From Candidatus Falkowbacteria bacterium (GTDB lineage Bacteria > Patescibacteriota > Patescibacteriia > UBA11705 > JABHMO01), in contig JABHAL010000004.1 of NCBI GenBank assembly GCA_018674305.1, positions 192,446-256,445 on the forward strand: a DNA stretch of 64,000 nt, read 5' to 3'. Position numbers and translations under genes: made by a program. The notes beneath the pieces were generated by a model, which had not been told where the DNA came from, did not search any database, and saw only the letters and a program-made list of their open reading frames with translations. Positions 3,009 to 12,519 of the stretch are shown in pieces; within the stretch, counting starts at the first letter, position 1; every line of letters starts with the position of its first letter.

Positions 3009-3624
3009 ATGACTTTAGAGGGTGAAATAAGGCGAAATAGGATAACATGGGTTAGGTTTTTGATTATTATAGTTTAGCTTGATTTATTTAAAATTGAAAG
3101 AACGGCAATGTATGAATTGCCGTTCTTGTGAGTCTAGCGCAAGAGTTCGCGCCCTAATGTAAGATTTTATGGCGGCTTGCGCTAAGAGTAGCGCCCCTTG
3201 TGTTGTGGCTTTGAAGATAGCTGATAGAAGATACTATCCTCGAAAAGCACAATACGCTTTGAGACGTTGGAGAAACATCTGTTAACCCTTCTTTGGAGAG
3301 AGCCTTTTACGGATCTCCTGTTTTAATTTTGTTTTTGTTTTTTTGGGTGGTAGTCCTAAGACTTTATGGGACGGATTTTGAAAAAGAAAAGTAGATAGAT
3401 GTTGTAGAGTGAATTTCCCAAATTGTGGATTTGAGTTAAATTGTGGGGAAAGAGCGAATGAACATTTTGTAAGAATTGATACGTTGACCTTTCCTTACAT
3501 TCATATTATATCATTATGAAAAAGCATGGTCAAGAGACACTGCCCATTTTCCTCTAATTAAAGCGCATTATACTAAAATTAAAGAAAAAACACACTTTTA
3601 CTGTATAAAATATGTGTTCAGTGC

Positions 3625-3661
3625 TGTGGATAACTTTGTGGATTTCTCTGGGTTATCCACA
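3625..3661. promoter_or_regulatory. Inverted pair of perfect DnaA boxes (TGTGGATAA ... TTATCCACA) with a degenerate box between
   Basis: 3625-3633 TGTGGATAA; 3653-3661 TTATCCACA; 3637-3645 TGTGGATTT (2 mismatches). Two further degenerate boxes at ~3424 and ~3446; AT-rich tract at 3540-3620. Confidence 0.45.
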
Positions 3662-3673
3662 TGGTTGTATACA

Positions 3674-9678: not shown

Positions 9679-10542
9679 ATGGTTAACATCGATCAATTAA
9701 TTACTGAGTTTCTAGGTAATCTAGAAAAGCGAAAAAGAACACTACGTACAGTGCGTAACTATGACTTTTATTTGCGTAGATTTTCAGTTTGGCTTAAAGA
9801 AAAAAACATTTCATCTCCAGAAGACATTAATAAAGATTTAATCAAGAAGTATAAAACATATTTAAAGAGAATTAAAAATCCAATAAAAAAAATTAATCTT
9901 AAGGAGACTACTCAGAACTATCACTTGATTGCACTAAGAGAATTTCTGAAATTTTTATATAAAAAAAATGTTCTAACAATAGGATCTAAACAGGTTCATT
10001 TGCATAAAGTAAAATCAGTAAAGGTATCATCGTTAAAAAAAGACGAAATAGGAAAATTTTTAGAAGCACCACAACAAATACGTCAAGATGCTCTCATTTC
10101 CCATAGAGATAGGGCTGTTTTGGAGATTATGTTTTGCACTGGCGCGAAGGTTTCTGAAGTCGCAGACTTGGTAATTAAAGATGTCGACTTCAAAAAACAG
10201 CAAGTGATAGTTGCAAAAGGAAGGAAAAATGAACGTGTGATAGACCTGTCTAATCAAAGTGTTTATTGGGTATCTAAATATTTAAAAAGTAGAGGAGGAA
10301 CACTTCCCTATTTGTTTGTTGGCCACGATAGAGCTAAATCAAAACGAAAACAAAAACCGATCTCAGCAAGAAGCTTGGAGCGTATCGTTCTAAAATATGG
10401 AAAGGTCGCAGGTCTTGAAAAAAAAGTCACACCTCAAATTTTACGTAGTACTTATGCAACTAATTTGGTGAAGAAAGGCCTTGGTTTCCAGTCCATTAAA
10501 AATAAACTTGGTACAACGTCGGATGGTTTCTTGAATTTGTAA
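9679..10542 (+). CDS. Tyrosine recombinase (XerC/D/integrase family)-like protein, probably catalytically inactive or truncated
   Basis: 287 aa; N-terminal SAM-like core-binding domain; box I HRDRAVLEIMFCTGAKVSEV and AKGRKNERV present, but HxxR reads QILR and the ORF stops (…LGTTSDGFLNL*) before the expected catalytic Tyr. Confidence 0.6.
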   Translation: MVNIDQLITEFLGNLEKRKRTLRTVRNYDFYLRRFSVWLKEKNISSPEDINKDLIKKYKTYLKRIKNPIKKINLKETTQNYHLIALREFLKFLYKKNVLTIGSKQVHLHKVKSVKVSSLKKDEIGKFLEAPQQIRQDALISHRDRAVLEIMFCTGAKVSEVADLVIKDVDFKKQQVIVAKGRKNERVIDLSNQSVYWVSKYLKSRGGTLPYLFVGHDRAKSKRKQKPISARSLERIVLKYGKVAGLEKKVTPQILRSTYATNLVKKGLGFQSIKNKLGTTSDGFLNL

Positions 10543-10688: not shown

Positions 10689-10716
10689 TTGACATTTTAA
10701 CACTATTTGTTATAAT
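10689..10716 (+). promoter_or_regulatory. Consensus sigma70 promoter TTGACA-N16-TATAAT for tRNA-Arg
   Basis: ttgaca 10689-10694; tataat 10711-10716; tRNA starts 10731. Confidence 0.6.
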
Positions 10717-10730
10717 CTTCACATGAAATT

Positions 10731-10807
10731 GGCGCCAGTAGCTCAGTGGATAGAGCAACACCCTTCTAAGGTGAAGGCCGAAGGTTCGATTCCTTCCTGG
10801 CGCACCA
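10731..10807 (+). tRNA. tRNA-Arg (anticodon TCT), CCA encoded
   Basis: GGCGCCA acceptor stem, D-arm AGCTCAGTGGATAGAGC, anticodon loop CTTCTAA, T-arm GAAGGTTCGATTCCTTC, ends with ACCA. Confidence 0.9.
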
Positions 10808-11105
10808 TTCTTTGCCCTTCGACAGGCTCAAGGCTGCGAATGGCGCAGCCATTTAACTATTTATTAATCCGCAAGATCCGCGTTATATCCGTGGGATCCG
10901 AATTTTCACTATGAATAAAGCAAAAAAAGTTGCTCGAAAAAAGCAACAAAAAAAACGAGGAAAAAACGTAGTTGTTCGACACAGATAATAGGTAATGCAA
11001 CGCCTATTATTTAGTTTTTTGTCGATGCTTAAATATTTTACGACACATTTTGTTGCTTAATTTTATTTGATATTGTGTATTTGGTATTAAATGTTTGCTT
11101 ATGAA

Positions 11106-11121
11106 TGTTCCACGTGGAACA
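11106..11121. promoter_or_regulatory. parS centromere-like site (TGTTCCACGTGGAACA)
   Basis: Perfect 16-bp palindrome matching the parS consensus tGTTnCACGTGnAACa; an identical copy lies at 12133-12148. Confidence 0.75.
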
Positions 11122-11129
11122 TTTAGCAT

Positions 11130-11205
11130 GTCCCGATAGTTCAGCTGGATAGAACACATCCCTCCTAAGGATGGGACCCAGGTTCAAGTCCTGGTCGGGA
11201 CACCA
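11130..11205 (+). tRNA. tRNA-Arg (anticodon CCT), CCA encoded
   Basis: GTCCCGA acceptor stem, anticodon loop CTCCTAA, T-arm CAGGTTCAAGTCCTGG, 3' end TCGGGACACCA. Confidence 0.9.
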
Positions 11206-11555
11206 TAAAAGTTGATTTTTTATAGTGACATATTTAGTTGATATGTTGATATTGAAAGTCAATTTTTTTGTATGAATATGAGTATTTAGGTAATGTAGTT
11301 GATATTTCTGATAACTTATATGATTGAATTATTGTAAATATTTAGATTCTAGAACATAAAATTCATAATGAATTGATCGAGTTTGTATAAATGTTCATGA
11401 ATTCACAAAAAATGTATATTAATGTGTATAACCTGTTGAAAAGTGGGCTTATTGGCTGTGTTTGTCCACACTAGTGTATGCAAATGCGATTAATCTTGAC
11501 AAATCCTAATTTGTTTGTTATATTTAGCAGTTAATATATAATGTGGAGGGAAATA

Positions 11556-12086
11556 ATGATTAACAGGCTCATTTACAAAGAATATGACCAGGATCAAATC
11601 GTCGGAATGTTGGCGAGACTACTTGGTGTAGCTGTCCTTTTCTCTATAGTGATAGCAATATTTGGCCATCTTGGCGTTCTGGTTCAAGACGTTGAAGCAG
11701 TTAGTCCAAATAGGTATGCAATTTTTGATACTAAATTCGCGCCAGTTTTGGTATTATTTTCTGCCTTGTTTGAAGAAATAATATTCAGATTCTTTCCAGT
11801 TTTTCTTTTAGTCATATGTTTCAGTTTTCGTACCAAAAAGCACTTATTTGTTGCTCAACTCGTTGTTTTAATGATTGCAAGTGTGGTGTTTGGATATGCT
11901 CACGGAGGATTTAGGCACATATTTACTCAGGGTGTGCTTGGAATGTTGATGTCATTGGTATTTATTTTGTCCGGAGGAAAGGATAAGAAATTTTCCAGGG
12001 CATTGTTCTTTAGTACACTTTTCCATTTTGCATATAATCTCATAATATTTTGTACACTTGCAGGCTTGTGCTACGTTTCAGGATGA
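11556..12086 (+). CDS. CPBP family intramembrane metalloprotease (CAAX protease/Abi-like)
   Basis: Multi-TM; EEIIFRFF (EExxxR) and HGGFRH motifs; RBS GGAGGG upstream of the ATG at 11556. Confidence 0.65.
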   Translation: MINRLIYKEYDQDQIVGMLARLLGVAVLFSIVIAIFGHLGVLVQDVEAVSPNRYAIFDTKFAPVLVLFSALFEEIIFRFFPVFLLVICFSFRTKKHLFVAQLVVLMIASVVFGYAHGGFRHIFTQGVLGMLMSLVFILSGGKDKKFSRALFFSTLFHFAYNLIIFCTLAGLCYVSG

Positions 12087-12132
12087 AATAACAAGGGGGT
12101 AGTCAATGATTGCCCCTTTTTATTTTGAGAAA

Positions 12133-12148
12133 TGTTCCACGTGGAACA
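12133..12148. promoter_or_regulatory. parS centromere-like site, second copy (TGTTCCACGTGGAACA)
   Basis: Identical to the 11106-11121 copy, 1027 bp away. Confidence 0.75.
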
Positions 12149-12303
12149 ATCTTATACAAATATCTAATGCAAAATATCAAATGCATAATAAAATTAGAGT
12201 ATAAAATGCGTCGTAAAATATTTGGTCAAATGCATGTATATTGCAAAATTCAATCCACATGATAGACTATTATTACAATTAGATATGTTGTTAAGGGGGA
12301 AAA

Positions 12304-12519
12304 GTGGAGACGATCAAAAAGAATCGTAATGACTTGTTTGAATTAATGAGACGAATGGAAGTATTTACTGCGCAGACGCTTATTCAGGAGTTTTCAAAAA
12401 ATCGTGCATCACTGCAAGTTGATACTCGTCAGACAATCAAGGGCTTACTTGAAGAACTGTGCTCTATCGGAGCACTTCATAGACAGAATGATATGTACAT
12501 GTTTCCCCAGTTAGTCTGA
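12304..12519 (+). CDS. Small hypothetical protein (possible winged-helix)
   Basis: 71 aa; GTG start with G-rich RBS; followed by terminator hairpin at 12529-12557. Confidence 0.4.
   Translation: METIKKNRNDLFELMRRMEVFTAQTLIQEFSKNRASLQVDTRQTIKGLLEELCSIGALHRQNDMYMFPQLV

Follow-up and report, generated by a model that had tools for sequence, protein, structure and literature searches.

P1 parS, of the plasmid/phage type, is a composite centromere in which ParB boxes A and B are arranged around a site for IHF; in Myxococcus xanthus a scaffold of bactofilins (BacNOP) and PadC positions the ParB-parS complexes, and in Bacillus subtilis clusters of DnaA boxes occur outside oriC. The closest counterpart to the locus described here comes from chromosomal ParABS systems, since the perfect parS of Pseudomonas aeruginosa (parS1-4) has the sequence TGTTCCACGTGGAACA and has been studied experimentally (PMC4368675, PMC5098823, PMC7022226). 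We report two exact copies of this 16-mer in a 64-kb stretch of DNA from Candidatus Falkowbacteria (contig JABHAL010000004.1, positions 192,446 to 256,445 of the forward strand; hereafter the window), and consider that they probably (at a rough probability of 0.8) constitute the chromosomal ParB-binding centromere (parS) of an uncultured Patescibacteria bacterium.

The window sites resemble those of chromosomal ParABS systems in being identical to P. aeruginosa parS1-4, few in number, tightly clustered and intergenic; in a second group of Patescibacteria loci (Type B, described below) no more than ~4 kb separates the cluster from dnaA, an arrangement shared with most bacteria. They differ in that no parAB genes adjoin the window sites (none within 94 kb), in that the sites of the window's lineage lie away from dnaA (the origin being apparently >21 kb off), in that the Patescibacteria sites possess an outer co-motif at a fixed 59-61 bp, and in that the pair brackets a tRNA-Arg(CCT) gene across many lineages. 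A literature search found neither the outer co-motif nor the tRNA-Arg(CCT) bracketing described for any parS; while this kind of parS is known, the composite (inward pair, outer co-motif at 60 bp, embedded tRNA-Arg(CCT)), which is widespread in Patescibacteria, appears to be undescribed.

Paired palindromes and their inverted modules

An earlier note on this DNA had reported two identical palindromes matching the parS consensus, and a scan of the window recovered both exactly (11106-11121 and 12133-12148, 1027 bp apart), each being a perfect palindrome that agrees with the consensus tGTTNCACGTGNAACa at 16/16 positions. Within the window they are the only matches with up to three mismatches (shuffles would lead one to expect 0.12), and the same holds for 93.8 kb of contiguous DNA, rebuilt by joining metagenome contigs identical to the window in their overlaps, for which base composition predicts 1.1e-5 exact copies; the sites are clustered, ~1 kb apart, and intergenic. 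Their relative positions are the same in 7/7 independent same-strain contigs covering the region. Identical proteins were found on JGI, ENA and NCBI metagenome contigs of up to 0.5 Mb, including bin GCA_018703365.1, the MurE of which is labelled Candidatus Falkowbacteria (placed by taxonomy in the Patescibacteria/Parcubacteria group). No site within one mismatch of the parS consensus was present in 78 control loci from unrelated genomes (~1.3 Mb). The identification as parS is upheld by the 16/16 match to a proven parS, by the rarity of the sequence and by its invariance at the same syntenic position while the flanks diverged. We favour it because invariance across deep lineages, rarity and absence from the control loci fit a ParB site; such invariance and rarity would not be expected of a hairpin in RNA, of a recombination core or of a palindrome arisen by chance.

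The description of the sites given in the earlier note is accurate, but it overlooked that they form the inner ends of an imperfect inverted repeat of 94 nt, the arms of which are 78% complementary without gaps. The outer start of either arm is AATATTTTACGAC, 61 nt from the palindrome, and no further copy of this sequence or of the arm occurs elsewhere in the 64-kb window. Between the palindromes lie the two genes that the note had named, a tRNA-Arg(CCT) and a CPBP protease gene, the latter an open reading frame (ORF) of 181 aa that matches Pfam Rce1-like/CPBP (E 4e-6, 27.5 bits, cut-off 22.4). The features of the locus, in window coordinates, are the following:

10732..10807, + strand: tRNA-Arg(TCT), with a consensus TTGACA-16-TATAAT promoter at 10689-10716; left edge of the Type A synteny.
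11031..11124, + strand: arm A of the inverted repeat, a full module (co-motif, 61-nt AT-rich spacer, parS-1).
11034..11046, + strand: co-motif A, TATTTTACGACAC, outside parS-1; TTTTACGAC ends 61 nt before parS-1.
11106..11121, no strand assigned: parS-1, the tRNA-adjacent site, palindrome TGTTCCACGTGGAACA, here widened to the 20-bp palindrome AATGTTCCACGTGGAACATT; exact in the two nearest reference genomes (L017, L018) and in the module loci.
11130..11205, + strand: tRNA-Arg(CCT), 8 nt downstream of parS-1 and oriented as module A (ARAGORN, Rfam).
11423..11487, + strand: conserved non-coding element between the tRNA and the CPBP gene, with the DnaA-box-like 9-mers TGTGTATAA and TTGTCCACA followed by the palindrome ACACTAGTGT.
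11541..12086, + strand: CPBP/Rce1-like membrane protease gene (181 aa), followed at 12093-12119 by a terminator-like hairpin just before parS-2.
12130..12223, - strand: arm B of the inverted repeat, the same module inverted (parS-2, 61-nt spacer, co-motif).
12133..12148, no strand assigned: parS-2, the distal site, the same 16-bp palindrome; most related loci also have an exact distal parS.
12208..12220, - strand: co-motif B, TATTTTACGACGC on the - strand, outside parS-2, the spacing again being 61 nt.

As judged from sequence comparison, the module is TATTTTACGAC(A/G)C, then 59-61 nt, then parS, with the co-motif outermost. The window's own species was absent among the reference genomes scanned, the nearest of which by PNPase identity are L017 (a Candidatus Kuenenbacteria bin, 84%) and L018 (80%). 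The former carries the module before its single parS and the latter at both of its parS (spacing 59-60 nt), and the five arms of the window and these two genomes are all identical over ATGTTCCACGTGGAACAT. Outside the co-motif and this segment the arms have diverged, as has the surrounding intergenic DNA.

A metagenome scan with the pattern TTTTRCGAC-N55-65-TGTTCCACGTGGAACA retrieved 68 loci with 79 pattern matches, in which the spacing between co-motif and parS was 60 nt in 42 cases, 59 in 11, 61 in 8 and 58 in 7. As chance co-occurrence of a 9-mer would spread flat, the peak at 60 nt argues for a real module. About 14 of the 68 loci, which are GC-rich, belong to other bacteria and are spaced off the peak, were taken for chance co-occurrences and left out of the counts (in several, soj-spo0J adjoins parS); this exclusion is possibly wrong for L122. 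The ~54 AT-rich loci of candidate phyla radiation (CPR) type were kept. Their consensus reads aTATTTTACGAC(a/g)C, ~9 nt, gCTAAnnTTAGC.AAAaT, an AT-rich stretch and aaA-TGTTCCACGTGGAACA-tTT. Among the 87 unique parS of the kept loci the co-motif is exact at 54, has one mismatch at 15 and two at 2, and is missing at 16; with up to two mismatches it thus stands at the right spacing beside 71/87 parS, as against 3% of random positions. The one-mismatch co-motifs TTTTACGAA, TTTTACGAT and TATTACGAC were not selectable by the scan pattern and represent, at the sequence level, independent evidence for the module. Furthermore, though the pattern imposed no distal site, the distal parS is exact in nearly every locus that is long enough (~30 further loci), usually at 0.4-3.6 kb from the first, and in a few loci a third parS, differing at one position, is present. 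In every pair of which both parS possess the co-motif, it is found on the outer side of each.

A co-oriented tRNA-Arg(CCT) is found 4-185 nt downstream of parS in 32 of the 52 evaluable modules (the other 20 being inverted distal modules), and a module that adjoins this gene is invariably upstream of it and in the same orientation. Since the distance from parS to the tRNA ranges so widely, the co-motif spacing is fixed relative to parS and not to the tRNA.

Synteny and the replication origin

Two architectures emerged from ORF clustering and tRNA mapping of the module loci. Type A, to which the window's lineage belongs, reads hyp416 - PNPase - S15 - Xer-like recombinase - tRNA-Arg(TCT) - module>parS - tRNA-Arg(CCT) - parS - (TrmB-like) - YggU - Sua5 - YfcE - trigger factor. 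Type B reads dnaA - YidC - DAGK-like - bactofilin - module>parS - tRNA-Arg(CCT) - tRNA-Ala(CGC) - tRNA-Ala(GGC) - TrxB - parS<module - thioredoxin - GDH (bactofilin, TrxB, DAGK, TrmB-like and thioredoxin were confirmed by Pfam). In four Type B loci dnaA lies 3.4-4.3 kb from the parS pair with YidC close by, and in two an rpmH-like ORF adjoins dnaA; the surroundings of the Type B parS are those of a classical origin neighbourhood.

The window had been thought in the earlier note to be probably near oriC in spite of lacking parAB and dnaA. The lack is real, as no dnaA, parA or parB was found from -10 to +84 kb (Pfam, tblastn/phmmer), and together with a GC skew at third codon positions (GC3 skew) that never switches sign it leaves the proposed proximity unsupported for this organism; cumulative GC skew, the check that had been suggested for an origin, rises throughout the window without a switch. 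On the + strand the GC3 skew averages +0.24 for the 34 + strand genes and +0.18 for the 49 - strand genes, and it is positive from -9 to +73 kb. Because it is positive for genes of both strands, neither an origin nor a terminus is indicated inside the stretch, the whole of which is best read as one replichore with the + strand leading and the origin leftward, >21 kb from the sites. Proximity to oriC does hold for the sister lineage (Type B), in which the same parS/tRNA-Arg(CCT) unit stands near dnaA at the distances given above; the unit was probably origin-adjacent ancestrally and moved in the window's lineage. As a separate observation, 49 of the 83 predicted genes between -9 and +73 kb lie on the GC3-lagging strand, an unusually weak or reversed strand bias despite the clear skew.

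Two candidates for an oriC inside the window, namely the DnaA-box cluster at 3421-3661 and the boxes that lie between parS-1 and parS-2, were rejected in view of the positive GC3 skew on both sides. In Type A loci DnaA-box-like sites (up to one mismatch) reach 2.21/kb between the parS sites vs 0.30/kb outside (~7-fold) and occur between them in 13/15 loci, often in tandem and 10-11 bp apart; no such enrichment was found between the parS sites of Type B loci, which adjoin dnaA. The cluster at 3421-3661, inside a 665-bp intergenic region (3009-3673), comprises two perfect TTATCCACA boxes, inverted and 28 bp apart (3625, 3653), and three boxes with two mismatches; ACACTAGTCTA, which resembles ACACTAGTGT, follows the perfect box at 3653. 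The perfect pair with its 28-bp spacing was also observed in L099 (1621/1649) and L143 (719/747), 6-7.5 kb from parS. The likeness to B. subtilis lies in the short off-origin clusters of the window (between the parS sites and at 3421-3661), the difference in that each holds 2-5 predicted boxes and that a tie to initiation control of the ParB/Soj type is speculative.

Turning to the genes around the sites, ~20 Type B loci (e.g. L104 8708-9240, L125 164-697, L145 and L111) have a gene for bactofilin (Pfam E 1.3e-21) as the immediate neighbour of the parS module, from which it is transcribed away; no bactofilin gene was found in the window or its flanks. The adjacency recalls the M. xanthus BacNOP-PadC scaffold and gives a hint that the centromere may be connected with a cytoskeletal scaffold; it differs in that Type B offers gene adjacency alone, no PadC-like adaptor having been identified.

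In L017, L018 and the other Type A loci no CPBP gene was found between the parS sites, and since the L018 pair brackets tRNA-Arg(CCT) without one, the CPBP gene of the window is species-specific cargo. Distant CPBP/Rce1-like genes (~30% identity to the 181-aa protein) occur between the parS sites in L164 (8293-8847) and L133 (2576-2845), and one lies right beside parS in L122 (3677-4090); in these lineages a TrmB-like regulator gene often accompanies the CPBP-like genes at parS. The CPBP-parS neighbourhood may therefore not be accidental.

Additional parS sites were also observed. In one Type A locus (L147) four exact copies lie within 1.1 kb (8250, 8404, 9081, 9291), from which it follows that a parS cluster can expand. 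In Type B a third, one-mismatch parS is often placed ~1.8-1.9 kb past the distal site (L110 9140, L118 1470, L130 2614, L145 8130), at or near the GDH gene in L110, L118 and L145.

Two further elements of the window may be unannotated genes. Between tRNA-Arg(TCT) and the parS module an ORF of 25 codons (MNKAKKVARKKQQKKRGKNVVVRHR, 10911-10988, + strand) has no Pfam match and may encode an unannotated small basic protein; it recurs at 56-88% identity in at least 11 Type A loci, where it retains its length, its frame and its basic nature. A GC-rich, hairpin-rich stretch at 3100-3330, set in intergenic DNA that is AT-rich elsewhere, might represent a structured RNA that has escaped annotation (its sole Rfam match, L20-leader, is insignificant at E 0.18). 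Across Rfam, relaxed thresholds included, tRNAs were the only RNA families found.

Proposed mechanism and competing explanations

We propose that a ParB dimer of the canonical type, the product of a gene lying elsewhere on the chromosome, would recognise each palindrome, bind CTP and close as a clamp, and that such clamps would spread across the ~1-kb interval and its neighbourhood, giving rise to a partition complex that would then be segregated (ParA may move it, SMC may load there, or both). That ParB is the binder of the palindromes is what we infer, and the same applies to a co-motif factor, which would give the otherwise symmetric parS a direction and may confine or stabilise the ParB complex. 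The modules form an inward-facing inverted pair bracketing tRNA-Arg(CCT), which stands beside dnaA in one lineage. By this account the pair is ancestral to a large Patescibacteria group, and in the window's lineage the whole unit would have come to lie in the PNPase-S15-Xer neighbourhood, with the origin at least 21 kb away. We advance only tentatively, as possible and rather doubtful, the fuller proposition that many Patescibacteria possess a bipartite directional centromere, made up of two parS facing each other across tRNA-Arg(CCT) and, exactly 60 bp outside each, of TATTTTACGACRC (often followed by CTAAnnTTAGC) for a second protein, which would bound, bend or anchor the ParB clamps and so confine ParB to a compact domain of 0.5-3.6 kb over an active tRNA locus. 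If true, a centromere so reduced might function with no parAB operon beside it, possibly with a bactofilin scaffold in some lineages.

Several points weigh against this account. Besides the absence of parB and parA from -10 to +84 kb, a literature search found no account of ParABS, ParB or parS in Patescibacteria; database annotations credit Patescibacteria with ParB, and the presence of ParB in this lineage is presumed on that ground. The window parS are not demonstrably origin-proximal, the GC3 skew being uniformly positive over 83 kb. As the metagenome scan demanded an exact parS, variation of the tRNA-proximal site was under-sampled. The co-motif half of the model is conjecture, and the best recurrent geometry of the co-motif (TTTACG-15 nt-TAAnnT), which is unlike sigma-70, is present in just 40% of the modules.

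The wider searches for partner proteins gave the following results. B. subtilis Spo0J and Soj as queries (tblastn and phmmer) detected ParB/Soj in the GC-rich chance loci only, over 2.2 Mb of DNA, and B. subtilis DnaA detected DnaA in Type B and SAR11 loci only, over the same 2.2 Mb; a protein database search with Spo0J gave Bacillus proteins alone among the matches listed, and an extra 10 kb on the right, reached via MurE, held no ParAB or DnaA.

The co-motif was considered and rejected as a sigma-70 promoter, no -35/-10 hexamers lying 16-18 bp apart at a conserved position. Its reverse strand offers a -10-like TAAAAT without a -35, and a promoter scan gave no site in arm A or arm B; that the organism does use canonical promoters follows from the TTGACA-16-TATAAT before tRNA-Arg(TCT). 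A literature search for the co-motif string returned unrelated oligonucleotides only, and no candidate binder gene is common to the Type A and Type B loci. The fixed distance from parS, the outer position in both orientations and the survival at diverged distal arms lead us to think that the co-motif points to a site for a second DNA-binding factor working with ParB-parS. A boundary or architectural role is the one we prefer, as a guess held with low confidence; alternatively, the co-motif might be a non-canonical promoter, or a regulator site coupling neighbouring transcription to ParB occupancy. With a second DNA-binding factor, the arrangement would be akin to P1 parS, in which a ParB-type site and a second element at a fixed distance create an asymmetry that implies a second protein contact or a bend. 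It differs in that the Patescibacteria core is the chromosomal-type palindrome and not the P1 boxes, and in that the co-motif is unlike the IHF consensus.

Among the competing explanations the one that survives best, which we nonetheless regard as improbable, takes the palindrome for the operator of a non-ParB transcription factor that regulates tRNA-Arg(CCT) and its neighbours, the module for a promoter-operator and the likeness to parS for coincidental or co-opted. It would account for the module being always upstream of, and co-oriented with, the tRNA, for the position of the distal co-motif ~80-135 nt upstream of an outward gene (thioredoxin in Type B, a 71-aa ORF at 12304 in the window) and for the TrmB-like regulator genes that often adjoin the distal site. 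However, ParB recognition would lead one to expect just this, a canonical parS matched at 16/16 positions and unchanged throughout deep lineages; Type A and Type B loci have no regulator gene in common, and both the variable parS-tRNA distance (4-185 nt) and the lack of a conserved sigma-70 geometry fit poorly with a promoter-operator. Moreover, the distal modules that face inward point at trxB or CPBP genes from their 3' side, which is hardly a place for a promoter.

The 94-nt repeats bracket a 1-kb segment, and a gene for an XerC/XerD-like tyrosine recombinase (9679-10542) lies 0.6 kb away, syntenic in Type A loci, so that the repeats could be conceived as recombination sites at which this enzyme flips the tRNA/CPBP segment. 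We hold this to be quite unlikely, as a single orientation was seen in the 7 same-strain contigs and ~45 related loci, with no flipped version; the outer tRNA-Arg(TCT) and inner tRNA-Arg(CCT) are co-oriented in every Type A locus, and the inner genes of Type B hold one orientation relative to bactofilin and Trx in every locus. Furthermore, an adjacent recombinase is lacking in Type B loci except L118, and the arms conserve parS and the co-motif only, with no site of the recombinase core type.

In RNA a perfect palindrome of 16 nt would form a hairpin, and with parS-1 placed 8 nt before the tRNA and parS-2 after the CPBP terminator, both might be signals by which the tRNA precursor or adjoining transcripts are processed or terminated. 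The probability of this is slight, for the sequence is invariant across lineages and not covarying, the distance to the tRNA varies, neither site is followed by a T-run and no Rfam family matches; the fixed partner is, moreover, a DNA motif that lies 60 nt further out whichever way the module is oriented. Least probable of all, and in our view negligible, is that the arms are the terminal inverted repeats of a small mobile element (similar to a transposon or a miniature inverted-repeat transposable element) or the att scars of a tRNA-inserted island with CPBP as cargo, since, for all that inverted repeats surround a tRNA and a species-specific gene and that IS200-like genes accompany some Type B pairs, inside them or close by, each genome stretch has a single locus with synteny always the same, no target-site duplication is visible beside 11031 or 12223, 2.9 million viral contigs gave a single match (GC-rich, by chance), the window has no other co-motif copy and the pair occurs without any cargo gene in L018, L099, L143 and others.

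Implications for the candidate phyla radiation

The CPR comprises ultra-small, mostly uncultured and often episymbiotic bacteria, in which chromosome segregation is, to our knowledge, essentially undescribed. The locus offers a precise candidate centromere for these organisms, and the evidence suggests that this centromere is of great age and has travelled together with one tRNA gene as a single unit. The partner motif at a fixed distance is unexplained by current ParABS models; should it be the binding site of a boundary or anchoring factor, it would provide a case from nature of the confinement of ParB sliding clamps, which is currently studied using artificial roadblocks. Moreover, the parS/tRNA-Arg(CCT) module may serve as a compact centromere marker for CPR metagenome bins and, in one lineage, would also help to find the origin region.

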